Assembly (NCBI RefSeq): GCF_003790525.1
Contig: NZ_CP033635.1
Length of the DNA: 64,000 nucleotides
Source of the DNA: Escherichia coli
Lineage (GTDB): Bacteria; Pseudomonadota; Gammaproteobacteria; Enterobacterales; Enterobacteriaceae
Reading direction: 5' to 3' (one strand)
Shown here: positions 5,639-63,227 of the stretch, piece after piece
How the letters are laid out: the number at the start of each line of letters is the position of its first letter
How positions within the stretch are numbered: the first letter of the stretch is position 1
Program-made: the position numbers and the translations under genes
Notes under the pieces: model-generated
What the model saw: only the letters and a program-made list of their open reading frames with translations
What the model was told of the DNA's origin: nothing
Databases searched by the model: none

Positions 5639-5671
5639 GGGCCGGATGTGCTGTACATCCGGCCCTTTTTT
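5639..5671 (+). terminator. Intrinsic terminator after araE
   Basis: GGGCCGGATG-tgctgta-CATCCGGCCC followed by TTTTTT, immediately after the araE stop. Confidence 0.7.
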
Positions 5672-6337: not shown

Positions 6338-7763
6338 TAATGCCGATCAGTTAAGGATCAGTTGACCGATCCAGTGGCTGTGTAAGAATCCGGAAACGCT
6401 CACTTGTTTCCGGATTTTTTTATGCACATTGGACAGGCTCTTGATCTGGTATCCCGTTACGATTCTCTGCGTAACCCACTGACTTCTCTGGGGGATTACC
6501 TCGACCCCGAACTCATCTCTCGTTGCCTTGCCGAATCAGGTACTGTAACGCTACGCAAGCGCCGTCTTCCCCTCGAAATGATGGTCTGGTGTATTGTTGG
6601 CATGGCGCTTGAGCGTAAAGAACCTCTTCACCAGATTGTGAATCGCCTGGACATCATGCTGCCGGGCAATCGCCCCTTCGTTGCCCCCAGTGCCGTTATT
6701 CAGGCCCGCCAGCGCCTGGGAAGTGAGGCTGTCCGCCGCGTGTTCACGAAAACAGCGCAGCTCTGGCATAACGCCACGCCGCATCCGCACTGGTGCGGCC
6801 TGACCCTGCTGGCCATCGATGGTGTGTTCTGGCGCACACCGGATACACCAGAGAACGATGCAGCCTTCCCCCGCCAGACACATGCCGGGAACCCGGCGCT
6901 CTACCCGCAGGTCAAAATGGTCTGCCAGATGGAACTGACCAGCCATCTGCTGACGGCTGCAGCCTTCGGCACGATGAAGAACAGCGAAAATGAGCTTGCT
7001 GAGCAACTTATAGAACAAACCGGCGATAACACTCTGACGTTAATGGATAAAGGTTATTACTCACTGGGACTGTTAAATGCCTGGAGCCTGGCGGGAGAAC
7101 ACCGCCACTGGATGATACCTCTCAGAAAGGGAGCGCAATATGAAGAGATCAGAAAACTGGGTAAAGGCGATCATCTGGTGAAGCTGAAAACCAGCCCGCA
7201 GGCACGAAAAAAGTGGCCGGGACTGGGAAATGAAGTGACAGCCCGCCTGCTGACCGTGACGCGCAAAGGAAAAGTCTGCCATCTGCTGACGTCGATGACG
7301 GACGCCATGCGCTTCCCCGGAGGAGAAATGGCGGAACTGTACAGTCATCGCTGGGAAATCGAACTGGGATACAGGGAGATAAAACAGACGATGCAACTGA
7401 GCAGGCTGACGCTGAGAAGTAAAAAACCGGAGCTTGTGGAGCAAGAGCTGTGGGGTGTCTTACTGGCTTATAATCTGGTGAGATATCAGATGATTAAAAT
7501 GGCGGAACATCTGAAAGGTTACTGGCCGAATCAACTGAGTTTCTCAGAATCATGCGGAATGGTGATGAGAATGCTGATGACATTGCAGGGCGCTTCACCG
7601 GGACGTATACCGGAGCTGATGCGCGATCTTGCAAGTATGGGACAACTTGTGAAATTACCGACAAGAAGGGAAAGGGCCTTCCCGAGAGTGGTAAAGGAGA
7701 GGCCCTGGAAATACCCCACAGCCCCGAAAAAGAGCCAGTCAGTTGCTTAACTGACTGGCATTA
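6338..7763 (+). mobile_element. Insertion sequence IS4, complete copy (1426 bp)
   Basis: 18-bp terminal inverted repeats TAATGCCGATCAGTTAAG (6338-6355) and the reverse complement of CTTAACTGACTGGCATTA (7746-7763), one mismatch between them; single transposase ORF; flanked by a 12-bp direct repeat; length equals the known IS4 size. Confidence 0.9.
6422..7750 (+). CDS. insG: IS4 transposase (DDE family)
   Basis: 442-aa ORF from the ATG at 6422 ([19 protein letters not shown]...); the ORF track starts 18 bp earlier at a TTG. Confidence 0.9.
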
Positions 7764-15166: not shown

Positions 15167-15204
15167 GCTTTCACCAGATGGCATATTCCGCCATCTGGTG
15201 AACG

Positions 15205-54888: not shown

Positions 54889-55620
54889 TCAGGCTGTTAC
54901 CAAAGAAGCCGCAACCTGGCGCTCATCAGAAATAATGTGCGTGACCTCATCCAGATGCCCGATGCGGGCTTCCCCTGAACGATTAAATTTACTTTTATCA
55001 ATCAATAACAACGATTGCGCGGCGCGTTTTAATAGCATTGATTTGTAATCAGCGTTGATGGCATTGGAGTCCCACAGTGCGCCGCTGCTATCGATCCCTT
55101 CACAAGAAAAAATAAACAGATCGATTTCCAGCGATTTAAGCTGGGAAATCAGCGAGGGATTGACGTAACAACCATATTTGCGCTCAAGTGTGCCGCCGGA
55201 ACTGATCAGTTGAATGCGTTCACGTTTACCGAGTTCATGGCAAATCGGATGGCTATTGGTGAAGACCTGGATGTTGATGTCAGGCAACTGGCGTGCCAGA
55301 TACCAGCAGGTTGAACTGGCGTCTAATGCTATTACCATCCCTTCTTCAATCCACGCGAGCGCCTCGCGCGCGATATCTGCTTTATGCGCATAATGGCTTT
55401 TCAACCGGATGTGAAAGGGATCGCCACTGTCTTGATTTTGACGGTGGATATATTTAGCGCGTCCATGATTGCGCAGAATTTTACCCTGCGTCTGTAATTC
55501 ATTGAGATCGCGACGAATGGTTTCTTTACTGACCTTTAGCTGTTCAGAGAGAGCTTCCGTGGTCAGGCTGGTATGGTTCAGCAGCAGGTCGACTATCGCT
55601 TGCTGGCGTGCCGCTTTCAT
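54889..55620 (-). CDS. fucR: L-fucose operon activator (DeoR family)
   Basis: Start at the third in-frame ATG giving MKAARQQAIVDLLLNHTSLTTEALSEQLKVSKETIRRDL (DeoR HTH). Confidence 0.9.
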   Translation of the reverse strand: MKAARQQAIVDLLLNHTSLTTEALSEQLKVSKETIRRDLNELQTQGKILRNHGRAKYIHRQNQDSGDPFHIRLKSHYAHKADIAREALAWIEEGMVIALDASSTCWYLARQLPDINIQVFTNSHPICHELGKRERIQLISSGGTLERKYGCYVNPSLISQLKSLEIDLFIFSCEGIDSSGALWDSNAINADYKSMLLKRAAQSLLLIDKSKFNRSGEARIGHLDEVTHIISDERQVAASLVTA

Positions 55621-55677
55621 ATTTTTCACCCCATCATTCGATAACCGCCCGCGTCATGCGGGCGTACCGGTATGAGA

Positions 55678-56100
55678 TTACGGTGTTACCCCTTTTTTTA
55701 AAAGAATATTCCCGTACTTCGCTCGTTCGCCTGTGATAACGATCGCAAAGGCTTTTTGCGCCCGTTCATAAAACGCAAAACGATTGATGCGGATGATGTC
55801 AGGACAGGGGGCTTGTAGTGAAAGCGCATTACGATAACGTCGTTCTACTTCAGGATCGAGAGTGTCACCTTCTACCGCCGCCATCATCACCAGCGGCGGT
55901 GCATAACTGTCCAGTTCAAATAACGGGATAATCGCCTGGAGCAAGTCACTCACCAACAGGCCATCAGCGCGGATCACCTGCGGTCCCATCGAATGGGCGG
56001 GAAAGTGAGCATCGGAAAAAATAATTTCATCTCCATGTCCCATCTCTGCCAGCACTTTCAATAGTTCGGGAGAAATTAACGGCGAAATTGTTTTCAGCAT
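55678..56100 (-). CDS. fucU: L-fucose mutarotase
   Basis: 140-aa [38 protein letters not shown]... Confidence 0.9.
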
Positions 56101-56101
56101 T

Positions 56102-57520
56102 TCACACTTCCTCTATAAATTCAGGTTCAGTTTGCGGGTAGAAATAACGGTACTGATAATGAATCTGCGCGCGGGCTTCTTCCGGGCTGTTAAATTCCCC
56201 TACGCCATACCAACCGAACAGCGCAGCTCCTGCGACGGTCGTTTCTGCGTCGTCGAGAACTTTTACCGGAATATCAAGCATATTGGCTTTAATCTGATTC
56301 CACAATGTGTTGCGACTTCCTCCGCCAACTAACAATAATTCAGAGGCTTTAAAGTGCCCGATTTTTTCCAGCATCTGTAGATTGCGCTGTAATTGCGTGG
56401 TTAACCCTTCCAGCGCCGCGCGATAGAAATGCCCCCGCGTGGTATTAAGCGTCACTCCTTGCCAGCCAGCGTTCTGACACGACAATAAATCACACTGCAT
56501 TTTCACTCCATCTGCGCCAGGAGCGATCAGACGAGCTTCTTCAATCAACATTTGCCAGGGAGTTTCAGCCGTCCAGAACAGTTTTCTCACCCATTCCAGC
56601 ACGCCGGATGCCAGCCATTGCATACCTGGGTTATACAACCCTGCCTGGCTATCCAGTTCGCAGGTAGAACCGGCGTACTGACTTAACAGCGAAGTATCAA
56701 CCTGGGCGCTGCGGACCATTAAAATTTCCCATGTACCGGAAGAGAGCACGGGTTCATTTTGTTCGGCACCAGCGCCAAAAAGGGCGAACTGGGTATCGTG
56801 ACCTGCGGAAATCACCGGTATGCCAACGGGTAAGCCGAGCATTGCTGCGGCGCTGTTCTGTAGCGTACCAATCTGTTCACCCGCTTCCACCAGACGAGGG
56901 AAGAGTCGGCGTGGAATACCGGTGGCTTGTAAAATTTGCGGACTGAAATCGCGTTGCTGGATATCCAGCATCTGGCTGGTTCCGGCCATCGTAATATCAG
57001 TAGTGAATTCGCCGGTTAAACGGTGGTTAATCAGCGACGAAATAAAGAGCCAGGCGTGCGCGCGTTCCAGCAGTTGTGGATGATTTTCTTTCAACCACAC
57101 CAACTTATATAACGTATTGAAACTAAAGGCTCCGACTCCAGAAATAGCCTGCAACTGCTGTGCGGAGATCAACCGTTCAATATTGTCCATTACCGCGGCT
57201 GTTCGCGGACATTTCCAGCTAATGATCGGATAGAGCAGATTGCCTTGCTTATCTACCAGAGCGCCATCCACACCAAAGGTGGTGACGGCGATACCGCGGA
57301 TGTGGCAATCAGTCAGTTCACTATTGATTTGCCGACAGCAATCAGCAAAGCGTTGCAAAATGGCGTCTAAAGACCACTGGTGCCAGGTGTTGTTTTCCAT
57401 CGCGATATCGCTGGCATTAGGCGTTGAGGCGCGGGCAACAATTTTTCCCTGCCGATTAACCGCGATGGCCCTGACATTGGTCGCGCCACAGTCGAGTACC
57501 AGGATAACTTCTTGTTTCAT
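56102..57520 (-). CDS. fucK: L-fuculokinase
   Basis: FGGY-family kinase; start placed at the ATG at 57518-57520 ([21 protein letters not shown]) because a palindrome just upstream would otherwise fall inside the coding region; the ORF track allows a start 30 bp further up (57550). Confidence 0.85.
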
Positions 57521-57538
57521 AATCGCTCCTGCAATATA

Positions 57539-57607
57539 GCCGGATAACATTGCTTATCCGGCTAACCACTCTTGCTTGTTCAGGCCCGGTAGCCGGAGCG
57601 ACCGGGC
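57539..57607. repeat. REP-like palindromes in the fucI-fucK intergenic spacer
   Basis: GCCGGATAA-cattgc-TTATCCGGC and GCCCGGT-agccggagcg-ACCGGGC hairpins. Confidence 0.4.
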
Positions 57608-57628
57608 ATCACATCAGGGAGTAATGTA

Positions 57629-59404
57629 TTAACGCTTGTACAACGGGCCGTAGTTCTGGCAAGCGCGGTAATCCTGGCCTTCAATATCCATGCCGTGCGC
57701 GGCCCAGGCAGAAGGACGATACACTTTGGTCTCTTCAACGTTGTGCATACATACCGGGATACGCAGCATGGAGGCAAGAGTGATAAAGTCTGCGCCAACG
57801 TGGCCGATGGTCAGAACCCCGTGGTTAGCGCCCCAGTTCGCCATTACCGAGTACACATCCGTAAACGGCCCTTTACCGGTGAGGCGCGGTGCAAACCAGG
57901 TGGTTGGCCAGGTTGAGTTGGTGCGTTTGTTGAGGATGTCATGCACATCCTTCGGCAATTCCACGCTCCAGCCTTCCGCGATTTGCAGTACCGGTCCCAG
58001 GCCTTTGATGATGTTGACACGAGTCATGGTGAACGGGACGCCGCCTTCGGTAAGGAAGCGGGAAGAGTAACCGCCGCCACGGAAGTATTCGTGGATCGCC
58101 GGGCACCATTCGGTAGCGGCGAGGCAAGCGTCAGCCTCTTGCTGAGAGATTTCCCAGTGCGGCTTCATCGTCGGGTTACCTTCGCTGTCGCGTTGTTTAC
58201 AGGAACCGTCCAGCGCAGCAGAACCGGAGTTGATCAAATGGATGATGCCGTGTTCTGCCAGTCCATCGAGTTTATGCCCCGTTACACGCTCAATTGCTTC
58301 TGGTGACCAGTAGGTACGCACATCGGCAAATACCTGAGCGGTGCCGGTGAGTTGGTGACCCATTAGCATTGCCACGCCGTTAAGACTGTCGTTTTCGGTC
58401 GCCACGACAAAGGGTTCGCGCACGCCATTCCAGTCAAATGAACTGTTGAGGAGCGCTTCGGCGGTGTCACCATTGGGATATTGATCGGTCCAGTGGCGTT
58501 GTCCCTGGAAGCCCGCAGCGATGGCGTTGTAGCCAAGTGATTCTTCCACGCGACCAATATCGGCCAGTTTGCTGTTGCCTTGCATCATGTCGCGGATACA
58601 CATCGCCATCAGTAAACTTTCGCGCAGAACTGCGCGGCTTTGCTCGGCATTGCGTTGATACTGTTTGTTATTTTCATCTTCGCCATAACGGAAGTTTTTA
58701 TCAGCCCAGGCCAGCGCCATTTCCAGTTCGGCTTCGTCGTAAATCTTCTGATCGATACGGCGACGCAGTTCGGTCATATCCACCGCCTGGACTTTCATTC
58801 CCAGCCAGGATTCAAAGAAGTTGTGATCAACAATAGAACCGGCGATACCCATCGAAACGCCGCCCAGCGACAGATAGCTTTTACCTTTCATGCTGGCGAC
58901 GGCCAAACCGGCGCGGGCAAAGCGCAGCAGTTTTTCTTCAACATCAGCAGGAATCGATGTGTCATCGGCATCCTGAACGTCATGACCGTAAATGGAGAAT
59001 GCCGGGATGCCTTTCTGGCTGTGAGCTGCCAGAGCCGCTGCCAGGTAAACAGCGCCGGGACGTTCGGTGCCGTTAAAGCCCCAAATGGCTTTCGGGCGGG
59101 TTGGATCCATGTCGATGGTTTCACTGCCATAGCACCAGCAAGGGGTTACCGTAATGGTGAGGCCTACATTCTGACTGCTGAATTTTTCTTCGCAAGCAGC
59201 GGCTTCAGCCATACCCGCGATACAGGTATCGGAAATGACACACTCGACGGCAGCTCCACAGGCATGGCGCAGTTTCTCGGTCAGCAGTGCGGCCGTGGCT
59301 TTCGCCATATTCATTGTTTGTTCTTCAAGCGACTCACGAACACCCATGCGACGACCGTCAATAACCGGGCGGATACCAATTTTCGGTAAGCTGATTTTTT
59401 TCAT
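57629..59404 (-). CDS. fucI: L-fucose isomerase
   Basis: 591-aa [33 protein letters not shown]... Confidence 0.9.
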
Positions 59405-59436
59405 TACAGATTCCTCACTTTATTCGGAAAATATGT

Positions 59437-60753
59437 TCAGTTAGTTGCCGTTTGAGAACGGAAACGGGCAAAGATAAAGATGACTGCGAAGCAGAGTGCG
59501 GGGATCAGTTCAGCTGTGGGGATGTTGCCCGCAGCGTCACTGACAAAACCCATGACCGGAGTGACAATACCGCCGCCAATAATGGTCATAACGATGAAGG
59601 ACGAACCGTATTTGGTGTCCTGGCCGAGATTCTTAATGCCCAGCGAGAAGATTGTTGGGTACTGAATCGACATAAAGGCACTGCATAAAGTCAGGGCTAT
59701 TAAACCCACATGACCGCCAGCGAAGGCTGAGATCAGGCACAGTGCCATAGCAATTAATGCGTAGGCTGCCAGGACTTTGTGTGGTGCGAAGCGACTGATG
59801 AGCCAGGTACCGGTGAAACGACCAATAAAGAAGCACACCATGGTTCCGGTTAAATAGTTAGCGGCAAAGCCTGCTGTCATACCTGGAATTTCTTCTACAG
59901 CGTAGCGAATTAAATAGCTCCAGCAGGCCGTTTGTGCGCCAACGTAGCAGAATTGCGCTAATACTGCCCAGCGCCAGTGGCGAATACGCGCCAGGCGAGA
60001 AAGCGATGCGGAGAACGATCCTTGTTTGGCGTCACTGTGATTATCACTCTGCAATGCCGGGAATTTCGTCAGCATGATCAGCAGGGCGACCAGTAACACG
60101 ATAGCCACGATGATCATATAAGGTGTCTGTACCGATAATACCAGGCTGTGTTTATACGCACTCAATTGCTCTGGAGACATTTTATCGAGAACGTCTTGCG
60201 ATTGATGTGGCACGTTAGACAAAATAAGACTTTGCCCAAAGACAACCGCGATAATTGCGCCAAATGAGTTAAATGTTTGCGCAAGATTTAAGCGGAAGTG
60301 ACCACTGCTTTCCGGCCCTAATACCGTAACAAAAGGGTTTGCGGCAGTTTCCAGACAACCTAATCCGGCTGCAATAATAAATAGGCCAACTAAAAACAAG
60401 GTGTAGTTCATTATTTCTGCGGCGGGCCAGAATAATGCAGCGCCGAAGGCATATAAAAACAATCCGGTAATAATCCCTGCTTTATAACTGAGTTTTTTCA
60501 TCAATATCCCGGCAGGGATTGGGATAATGAAATAACCAAAGTAAAAGGCCGATTGGATCAGGCCAGCCTGGAAATTTGTCAGCGTAAAAGCCTGCTGGAA
60601 TTGAGGCAATAAAATGTCGTTAAGGTTATTGGCTACCGCCCAAAGAAAAAACAGTGAGCACAGCAGTGCAAATGGAATAATGTAACTTCTGCTTTGCCCT
60701 GCATCTTTATCTACCGCACGGTAACTCTGCGTTTGTATTGATGTGTTTCCCAT
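59437..60753 (-). CDS. fucP: L-fucose:H+ symporter (MFS)
   Basis: 438-aa polytopic ORF; first gene of the fucPIKUR operon. Confidence 0.9.
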   Translation of the reverse strand: MGNTSIQTQSYRAVDKDAGQSRSYIIPFALLCSLFFLWAVANNLNDILLPQFQQAFTLTNFQAGLIQSAFYFGYFIIPIPAGILMKKLSYKAGIITGLFLYAFGAALFWPAAEIMNYTLFLVGLFIIAAGLGCLETAANPFVTVLGPESSGHFRLNLAQTFNSFGAIIAVVFGQSLILSNVPHQSQDVLDKMSPEQLSAYKHSLVLSVQTPYMIIVAIVLLVALLIMLTKFPALQSDNHSDAKQGSFSASLSRLARIRHWRWAVLAQFCYVGAQTACWSYLIRYAVEEIPGMTAGFAANYLTGTMVCFFIGRFTGTWLISRFAPHKVLAAYALIAMALCLISAFAGGHVGLIALTLCSAFMSIQYPTIFSLGIKNLGQDTKYGSSFIVMTIIGGGIVTPVMGFVSDAAGNIPTAELIPALCFAVIFIFARFRSQTATN

Positions 60754-63123: not shown

Positions 63124-63141
63124 ATGCGCTGATGTGATAAT

Positions 63142-63174
63142 GCCGGATGCGACGCTAGCCGTGTCTTATCCGGC
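63142..63174. repeat. REP element between the convergent fucO and xni
   Basis: GCCGGATGCGACGC...TTATCCGGC palindrome. Confidence 0.5.
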
Positions 63175-63227
63175 ATATAAGTGCATTAAATTCAATGTGT
63201 TGATAATCGTTTGCATCCGGCACGCCG

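Follow-up and report, generated by a model that had tools for sequence, protein, structure and literature searches.

The REP pairs, or BIMEs, of Enterobacteriaceae are extragenic, lie between tandem genes and consist of two inverse G+C-rich palindromes whose feet point toward a short, variable linker (PMC3333891), and the spacer between fucI and fucK of Escherichia coli has the same layout. A 5' GTAG foot and a mismatch in the stem of the REP are both needed for binding and cleavage by TnpA-REP (Ton-Hoang et al. 2012, PMC3333891), and a perfect palindrome abolishes TnpA-REP binding in vitro (PMC3333891). REP325 attenuates transcription, partly via Rho, and also protects the mRNA upstream of it (Harris et al. 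2026 preprint, doi 10.64898/2026.03.23.713779). For tandem gene pairs with a REP between them, the median log2 ratio of upstream to downstream expression is 0.96, versus -0.09 for controls (Harris et al. 2026 preprint). For the fucI-fucK spacer, we consider a decayed BIME, a 472-aa FucK start and a stabiliser or attenuator role of the hairpins, taken together, to be probably the best explanation.

The window analysed here is the whole stretch of 64,000 nucleotides of E. coli DNA. The 600 bases around the spacer show 100% identity to strain ATCC 11775 and were found in 5,424 of 5,426 complete E. coli genomes. The fuc locus of ATCC 11775 is identical to that of the window, and its RefSeq annotation was used for fucI; the spacer is likewise 100% identical to that of K-12 MG1655. 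The features are as follows.

57629-59404, minus strand: coding sequence of fucI (L-fucose isomerase), with the stop codon TAA at 57631-57629, from the ORF list and the RefSeq annotation of ATCC 11775 and K-12.
57521-57628, minus strand: fucI-fucK intercistronic spacer of 108 nt, transcribed within the fucPIKUR mRNA.
57580-57608, minus strand: HP1, the iREP relic, which the mRNA reads as UGCCCGGUCGCUCCGGCUACCGGGCCUGA, with the foot CCTGA (canonical CCTAC).
57567-57579, minus strand: linker between HP1 and HP2, 13 nt, ACAAGCAAGAGUG, from the multiple alignment.
57537-57566, minus strand: HP2, the REP relic, which the mRNA reads as GUUAGCCGGAUAAGCAAUGUUAUCCGGCUA, with the foot GTTAG (canonical GTAGG).
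57548-57550, minus strand: upstream in-frame ATG in the HP2 loop, the start of a legacy 482-aa FucK, judged non-functional.
57526-57530, minus strand: Shine-Dalgarno sequence AGGAG of fucK, 5 nt upstream of the ATG, read from the sequence.
56102-57520, minus strand: coding sequence of fucK (L-fuculokinase), 472 aa, from RefSeq, FUCK_ECOLI, tblastn in 43 orthologs and Pfam FGGY_N.
56102-57550, minus strand: long form of the fucK ORF, in which the ATG at 57520 is the second in-frame ATG.

The first-pass annotation had marked 57521-57628, which is exactly the gap from the fucI stop codon to the ATG at 57520, and had described two hairpin-forming palindromes in it. Both palindromes are real and non-random by a repeat search and by folding against shuffles. 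HP1 is an inverted repeat with 10-nt arms (57584-57593 and 57598-57607) that are 90% complementary (9 of 10 pairs) around a 4-nt loop; its stem pairs 57607-57601 with 57590-57584, followed by two inner G-C pairs and the loop UCCG at 57597-57594, and it retains one C/U mismatch. HP2 has 11-nt arms (57537-57547 and 57554-57564) that are 100% complementary around a 6-nt loop, so that the mRNA forms a perfect 11-bp stem of 57564-57554 with 57547-57537, closed by the loop GCAAUG at 57553-57548, and it lies 16 nt from the fucK start. Folded on the minus (mRNA) strand, HP1 reaches -18.2 kcal/mol (z -3.2, equalled by 1 of 200 shuffles) and HP2 -17.5 kcal/mol (z -4.8, by none of 200), while the whole spacer reaches -46.4 kcal/mol (z -4.9, again none of 200). 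In K-12, window positions 57584 (HP1) and 57537 (HP2) correspond to about 2937404 and 2937451.

The 64-kb window has only six sites at which a perfect inverted repeat combines a stem of 10 or more with a loop of 3-8, where shuffles predict 0.2. Four others, at 5639-5665 (GGGCCGGATGTGCTGTACATCCGGCCC), 6387-6416, 7734-7759 and 15170-15202, are perfect as well, their stems measuring 11-13 bp and their loops 4-8 nt. The minimum free energy fold of the spacer adds an outer stem (57625-57619 with 57571-57565), which we rejected since the natural polymorphisms 57623 T>G and 57622 A>C break its pairing; the extended outer stem around HP1 is probably not real. The covariance models of Rfam 15 gave no match in window positions 55000-60000 at E up to 1 and nothing at the gathering threshold in five orthologous loci, and a scan of the spacer with the sigma-70 promoter consensus returned no site.

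The origin of the two hairpins became apparent from other genomes. The orthologous locus was collected from 43 of them and each fucI-fucK spacer was extracted, which gives 44 loci including E. coli. Two canonical REPs in inverse orientation occupy the same position in 25 of the 43 spacers (Klebsiella, Citrobacter, Salmonella, Raoultella planticola and others). A typical pair reads ...GCCCGGTGGCGCAAGCTTACCGGGCCTAC-linker-GTAGGCCGGATAAGCGCAGCGCCATCCGGC..., or in fuller form TTTGCCCGGTGGCGCAAGCTTACCGGGCCTAC - linker - GTAGGCCGGATAAGCGCAGCGCCATCCGGC, and the Klebsiella/Citrobacter element at this spacer is GCCCGGTGGCGC...TTACCGGGCCTAC. The E. coli arrangement was found in three spacers, from E. 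albertii and two divergent Escherichia lineages; a single REP is present in two, a different dispersed repeat in two, and a plain G+C hairpin in 11, six of which also have a run of at least 5 T.

In a multiple alignment, HP1 corresponds to the first element of the pair, an iREP ending in CCTAC, and HP2 to the second, a REP beginning with GTAGG. The order in E. coli, an iREP-like HP1, a 13-nt linker and a REP-like HP2 with both feet toward the linker, matches the layout of the 25 orthologous spacers. HP1 agrees with the Klebsiella/Citrobacter iREP consensus TGCCCGGTGGCGCAAGCTTACCGGGCCTAC at 23 of 30 positions, and HP2 agrees with the orthologous REP consensus at 23 of 32. With the Shine-Dalgarno region excluded, local alignment of the E. 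coli spacer scores 31 against K. spallanzanii and 29 against C. braakii, compared with a shuffle mean of 14 and a maximum of 23-24, and none of 500 dinucleotide shuffles reaches either score. Alignment to the Salmonella spacer, which carries other REP types, was not significant, as 32 of 500 shuffles reach its score. The linker differs among genera in both length and sequence, and BIME linkers are likewise variable (Ton-Hoang et al. 2012, PMC3333891). The term 'REP-like' used in the first-pass annotation is thus borne out by the canonical REP/iREP pairs at the orthologous position and by an alignment that 0 of 500 shuffles reach.

These comparisons show HP1 and HP2, as judged from their sequence, to be the remains of a BIME, an iREP and a REP facing each other across a 13-nt linker, and they show that a BIME in the fucI-fucK spacer predates the divergence of Escherichia from its relatives. 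Because canonical pairs occupy the orthologous position and the alignment lies beyond the reach of shuffles, the E. coli hairpins are best read as a decayed, immobilised BIME. Covariation across genera, seen at 3 of 13 pairs, is confounded in that the REP types are palindromic by construction. In Kosakonia, the hairpin of the spacer shares the GCCCGG/CCGGGC stem and has a T-rich tail behind it, and because of this shared stem HP1 could descend from an old terminator hairpin instead of a mobile REP.

For the head of a REP we take the consensus to be GTAGGCC(G/T)GATAAG. HP2 matches it at 12 of 14 positions, and 11 of 100 window shuffles have at least two such matches, so that its likeness to a REP consensus is evident yet incomplete. 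The REP head occurs exactly at three other intergenic sites in a 50-kb piece of K-12 and also elsewhere in the orthologous loci. The iREP consensus is dispersed in records of Klebsiella, Salmonella, Enterobacter and Citrobacter; a single Klebsiella record can hold as many as 8 copies, while E. coli genomes have few of this canonical iREP (HP1) type, 1-3 places each. K-12 RefSeq has no repeat features across the 50 kb even though canonical REPs are present there, so the absence of such a feature at the spacer is uninformative. No previous account of REPs in the fucI-fucK spacer turned up in a search of the literature, and in 40 sampled genomes the spacer is without annotated features.

Several observations from the collected records stand beside this picture. 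In the window, a REP-like hairpin at 63140-63185 on the minus strand lies between ygdG and fucO and corresponds to K-12 REP203; it reads ATATGCCGGATAAGACACGGCTAGCGTCGCATCCGGCA in the window strain, markedly unlike the K-12 copy GAGCCGGATACGCCGCAAACGTCGTATCCGGCA. Because REP203 is the REP between ygdG and fucO, the fuc element is apparently outside the numbered K-12 REPs. In Citrobacter amalonaticus (locus L011, 2317-2500) and Citrobacter sp. MGH106 (locus L044, 2382-2500), another repeat that ends in ...CTGCAACGTGAAATATGACGGGTATG replaces the REP pair. It resembles ERIC/IRU, and in 922 E. coli genomes segments of it align with unrelated intergenic sites, the identity being 83-87%. A contig of the actinobacterial assembly Agrococcus sp. 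HG114 (locus L046, 382 bp, coverage 0.9) holds a FucK fragment that is 100% identical to the FucK of the window and is probably contamination, and a record labelled Serratia marcescens (locus L010) has a fuc spacer of the Citrobacter/Klebsiella type with an 85% identical FucK, and may be mislabelled or a mixed assembly.

The E. coli pair has departed from the canonical form in the features that TnpA-REP reads. The GTAG/CTAC feet are mutated in both hairpins, HP2 beginning with GTTAG and HP1 ending with CCTGA, and HP2 is without the apical part and the stem mismatch of a canonical REP, all 11 of its pairs being perfect. A blastn search (word 11, E up to 10) finds a median of one and at most three copies of the spacer per E. 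coli genome, and detected no family of like copies of the element in E. coli genomes at these settings. Because the feet are mutated and the stem mismatch is gone, the REP-associated transposase should, by the criteria of PMC3333891, have ceased to act on the pair. Since foot, stem mismatch and copy number all depart from a canonical REP, we do not call it one and file it as a fixed, single-copy part of the operon that descends from a BIME and would work like REP hairpins.

In E. coli 13KWH46 (NZ_CP019250.1, locus L050, 2170-3500), a 1331-bp insertion of the IS3 family lies in the apical loop of HP1, at window positions 57594-57598, with a 5-bp target duplication CTCCG and the same orientation as the operon; fucK, fucU and fucR are still annotated as intact. 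By its ends and length we take it to be IS2, which is not REP-specific. The REP-specific IS1397, whose presence would have spoken functionally for a REP at this site, was considered for this insertion and rejected on the length of 1331 bp, the 5-bp duplication and the resemblance to IS2.

Of the 5,424 E. coli genomes, 5,257 have a spacer with an identity of at least 99%. The variant E. coli and other Escherichia that were examined differ at 15 positions of the spacer. Only two of these belong to the core stems, which comprise 40 positions, and both changes are pairing-neutral (G-C to G-U at 57584 and U-A to U-G at 57590). The avoidance of the core stems by substitutions gives a one-sided Fisher p of 0.034 from few and phylogenetically related sequences. 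Three Escherichia substitutions fall in the HP2 loop, at 57553, 57551 and 57548. Across genera, a fold z below -2 was obtained for 41 of the 44 orthologous spacers, whatever element they contain. The fucI-fucK junction seems to keep a hairpin that is made of different material in different lineages.

These data bear on whether the pair is now simply a dead BIME with no present function, in which case it would be nearly invariant simply for want of diversity within E. coli, and any intergenic repeat would be tolerated in the spacer. Both features recognised by the RAYT are gone, the polymorphisms break the outer stem extension, other lineages have unrelated elements here (a single REP, an ERIC-like repeat, plain hairpins), and one E. 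coli strain carries an insertion, taken to be IS2, in the HP1 loop with the fuc operon annotated as intact, all of which would be expected of a neutral relic. Against this, substitutions avoid the core stems and the two exceptions keep the pairing (p = 0.034), HP2 is now a better hairpin than a canonical REP, and a stable hairpin is found in the spacer of every lineage (41 of 44 with z below -2). On this balance, a neutral relic is a possibility to be taken seriously, though we doubt it.

A second reading places the function in the DNA, with the 11-bp inverted repeat and its 6-bp spacer acting as a dimeric operator, for example for FucR, or as a gyrase or IHF site of the BIME type. Some BIME classes are reported to bind IHF or gyrase, and a dimeric regulator would fit well on a perfectly palindromic site. 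IHF is mentioned for the linker of BIME-1 (PMC3333891), whereas the 13-nt, non-conserved linker of the fuc pair is unlike the long conserved L linker of BIME-1 (PMC3333891). Moreover, no second copy of the motif exists in the 64-kb window, the fucA-fucP control region included; the ygdG-fucO REP is the sole further sequence that comes near it; and the orthologous sequences are ordinary REPs without a conserved operator. We therefore regard a DNA-level site as very unlikely.

The identity of the element also bears on the start of fucK. The first-pass annotation held that the shorter fucK is the likelier one and proposed a comparison with the curated N-terminus. RefSeq K-12 (NP_417283.2, the second version of this entry), PGAP and Swiss-Prot FUCK_ECOLI all give 472 aa. 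The UniRef representative FUCK_ECOLI, the 472-aa K-12 sequence, is found on at least 1000 contigs, while the 482-aa forms are found on 45 and 3 contigs, in a few GenBank records. In tblastn searches of 43 orthologs, every match begins at residue 1 of the short FucK. Position 1 of Pfam FGGY_N corresponds to residue 5 of the 472-aa form and to residue 15 of the 482-aa form, and alignments with PDB homologues start at residues 2-10 of the latter proteins; the 472-aa FucK has the domain start near the initiator Met that is expected of an FGGY carbohydrate kinase. In addition, a GGAG located 6-9 nt upstream of 57520 is invariant in 19 aligned orthologous spacers, and a purine-rich equivalent of the Shine-Dalgarno sequence is present in all 44 loci.

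The upstream ATG, at 57550-57548, forms the last three bases of the HP2 loop. No Shine-Dalgarno sequence stands ahead of it, and its region from -15 to -5 is the 5' arm of HP2, which is paired with a probability of about 1. The codon is destroyed in E. albertii (57548 G>A), and 12 of the 44 loci are without an in-frame upstream start. We conclude that fucK starts at 57520 and encodes 472 aa, which is correct and already known to curators, and that the HP2 loop contains the ATG at 57550 by accident. The earlier preference for the shorter fucK is upheld by the 472-aa RefSeq and Swiss-Prot entries, the FGGY_N position, the invariant GGAG and the loss of the upstream ATG in E. albertii. Its supporting argument, that a start at 57550 would make the palindrome coding, holds for the loop ATG and the 3' arm (57547-57537) and fails for the 5' arm, which sits at the place of a Shine-Dalgarno sequence; as an argument for the short start it is weak alone, and the conclusion is right on the stronger grounds given above.

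A 482-aa FucK starting at 57550, as the real or an additional product with the 3' arm of HP2 as coding sequence, would have an in-frame ATG without an intervening stop, this ATG is unpaired in the loop, and the form appears in some GenBank records, including older annotations of K-12 derivatives. Such a product would nevertheless have to start without a Shine-Dalgarno sequence, with positions -15 to -5 locked in a perfect 11-bp stem (pairing about 1), from a codon that is lost in E. albertii and has no in-frame counterpart in 12 of 44 loci. Neither the FGGY_N domain nor any alignment with a PDB homologue takes in its 10 additional residues, RefSeq and Swiss-Prot choose 472 aa, and the loop substitutions at 57553, 57551 and 57548 suit a free loop and not codons. 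We give the long FucK hardly any credence.

With the 472-aa start, the whole element is extragenic and lies within the 108-nt spacer, and HP1 and HP2 would act in the fucPIKUR mRNA. At about -18 kcal/mol each, the two hairpins may be barriers to the 3'-to-5' exonucleases PNPase and RNase II, and some modest attenuation, probably helped by Rho, may take place at them too. As a result, the fucP-fucI segment would outlast fucK-fucU-fucR or be made in excess over it. We put the chance that the hairpins have a measurable stabiliser or attenuator effect at about even, on the strength of analogy with described REP hairpins. A literature search found no experiment on the fucI-fucK spacer, and the transcript-end data sets consulted list neither fucI nor fucK. 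For REPs at large, no general effect on mRNA half-life is reported (Harris et al. 2026 preprint), which counts against a stabiliser.

Published counts allow a look at the expression ratio. The supplementary RNA-seq baseMean is 1727 for fucI and 869 for fucK (Harris et al. 2026, doi 10.64898/2026.03.23.713779), from which we obtain a fucI/fucK log2 ratio of 0.99 raw and 0.67 per kb. This ratio is in line with the stabiliser/attenuator model, as a single uninduced data point averaged over conditions. Along the operon, the uninduced counts per kb in the same supplement are 171 for fucP, 972 for fucI, 612 for fucK, 660 for fucU and 575 for fucR. The first gene, fucP, is therefore ~5.7-fold below fucI per kb, which neither the hairpins nor simple polarity explain. 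Because fucP is so far below fucI, other effects are clearly at work, and an internal promoter or processing at the fucP-fucI junction is possible. Reviews name fucI and fucK as targets of Spot 42; a pairing of Spot 42 with the spacer was examined with an approximate sRNA sequence and was dropped as the duplex energies are no better than those of shuffles (75 of 200).

The hairpins could also be thought to act on translation. The apex of HP1, UCGCUCCGGC (57601-57592), would in this case be an anti-Shine-Dalgarno sequence for GCAGGAGCGA (57532-57523) and tune fucK. Nine of the 10 positions are complementary, and the duplex reaches -18.2 kcal/mol, an energy that 24 of 2000 dinucleotide shuffles attain. 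Seven orthologous spacers, from other genera and E. whittamii, do not have the duplex, which was created by E. coli-specific changes from the iREP consensus and is kept through a C-to-U wobble change in a divergent Escherichia. The match was, however, found post hoc and its p, about 0.012, is modest; the minimum free energy fold is more stable than the alternative one by 6.4 kcal/mol, HP1 forms first during transcription, and experimental support was not found. An anti-Shine-Dalgarno role is thus very improbable. The fuller version, in which the decayed iREP has been domesticated and its Escherichia-specific apex UCGCUCC pairs across HP2 with the fucK ribosome-binding site, is a shade less probable again. 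If it were true, a former mobile repeat would set the FucI:FucK translation ratio, with the perfected HP2 bringing the partners together.

The first-pass annotation had suggested, next to mRNA stabilisation, a partial terminator within the operon, a pair of roles in keeping with published work on REPs. Hairpins that resemble a classical, Rho-independent terminator are found in other genera. Six loci of Raoultella, Enterobacter sp., Symbiopectobacterium and Kosakonia (L024, L025, L040, L043, L030 and L037, at ~2445-2500) have spacers of 51-57 nt with one G+C hairpin and a T-run directly upstream of the fucK Shine-Dalgarno sequence. A terminator scan confirms an intrinsic-terminator-like hairpin in two of them, L025 and L043 (Raoultella terrigena and Symbiopectobacterium). 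The E. coli hairpins are themselves G+C-rich and stable, and the Raoultella terrigena and Symbiopectobacterium spacers in the orthologous position match the terminator consensus, yet the consensus scan calls no site in the E. coli spacer. There, HP1 is followed by CUGAACAAGC and HP2 by UAUAUUGCAGG, neither of which is a U-tract. Because the U-tract is missing, a classical intrinsic terminator is unsupported in E. coli, and we consider such a partial terminator highly unlikely; the attenuation proposed above for the stabiliser/attenuator model would probably be Rho-assisted.

In summary, the element is an unannotated example of a well-known kind of repeat with a start codon beside it that has already been corrected, ordinary and unsurprising to a specialist. 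Its use lies elsewhere. The legacy 482-aa FucK of some GenBank entries has been extended too far, into a repeat element, which is a matter of annotation hygiene. Positional orthology recognises REP relics that motif-based REP catalogues miss. Furthermore, a stable hairpin is present at fucI-fucK in every lineage examined and is drawn from at least four unrelated elements, namely a REP pair, a single REP, a terminator-like hairpin and an ERIC-like repeat. Because a hairpin is kept across lineages from such unrelated elements, this suggests a modest conserved need to uncouple the expression of fucPI from that of fucKUR.

Placed among the known systems, the fuc hairpins are 72-77% identical to the canonical REP/iREP at the orthologous Klebsiella/Citrobacter position, and they differ from a BIME in the feet GTTAG and CCTGA, in the perfect 11-bp stem of HP2 without mismatch or apex, and in being present as one copy per genome. 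The attenuator-like hairpins of Raoultella, Enterobacter sp., Kosakonia and Symbiopectobacterium are stable G+C structures that occupy the same place, from the fucI stop to the fucK Shine-Dalgarno sequence; these are not REPs and carry a run of 5-7 T, whereas E. coli has two hairpins and no T-run. Stem-loops without a U-tract at the ends of transcription units resemble the fuc hairpins in their intrinsic-terminator-like energy and in that they would block trimming by PNPase and RNase II, but they mark the ends of transcription units while the fuc hairpins sit inside an operon.

The nearest functional parallels lie between co-transcribed genes. REP hairpins stand in such a position in REP325 of the yjdM-yjdN operon (Harris et al. 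2026), as do the hairpins of the classical malE-malF REP stabiliser (Newbury et al. 1987), and the fuc hairpins share it. The REP325 and malE-malF elements are canonical, annotated and experimentally supported, whereas the fuc element is a degenerate relic known from its sequence. The effect that would be expected of all three is the same, a stabilised upstream transcript together with reduced downstream expression, and the raw fucI/fucK log2 ratio of 0.99 resembles the median of 0.96 for REP-containing tandem pairs (Harris et al. 2026).
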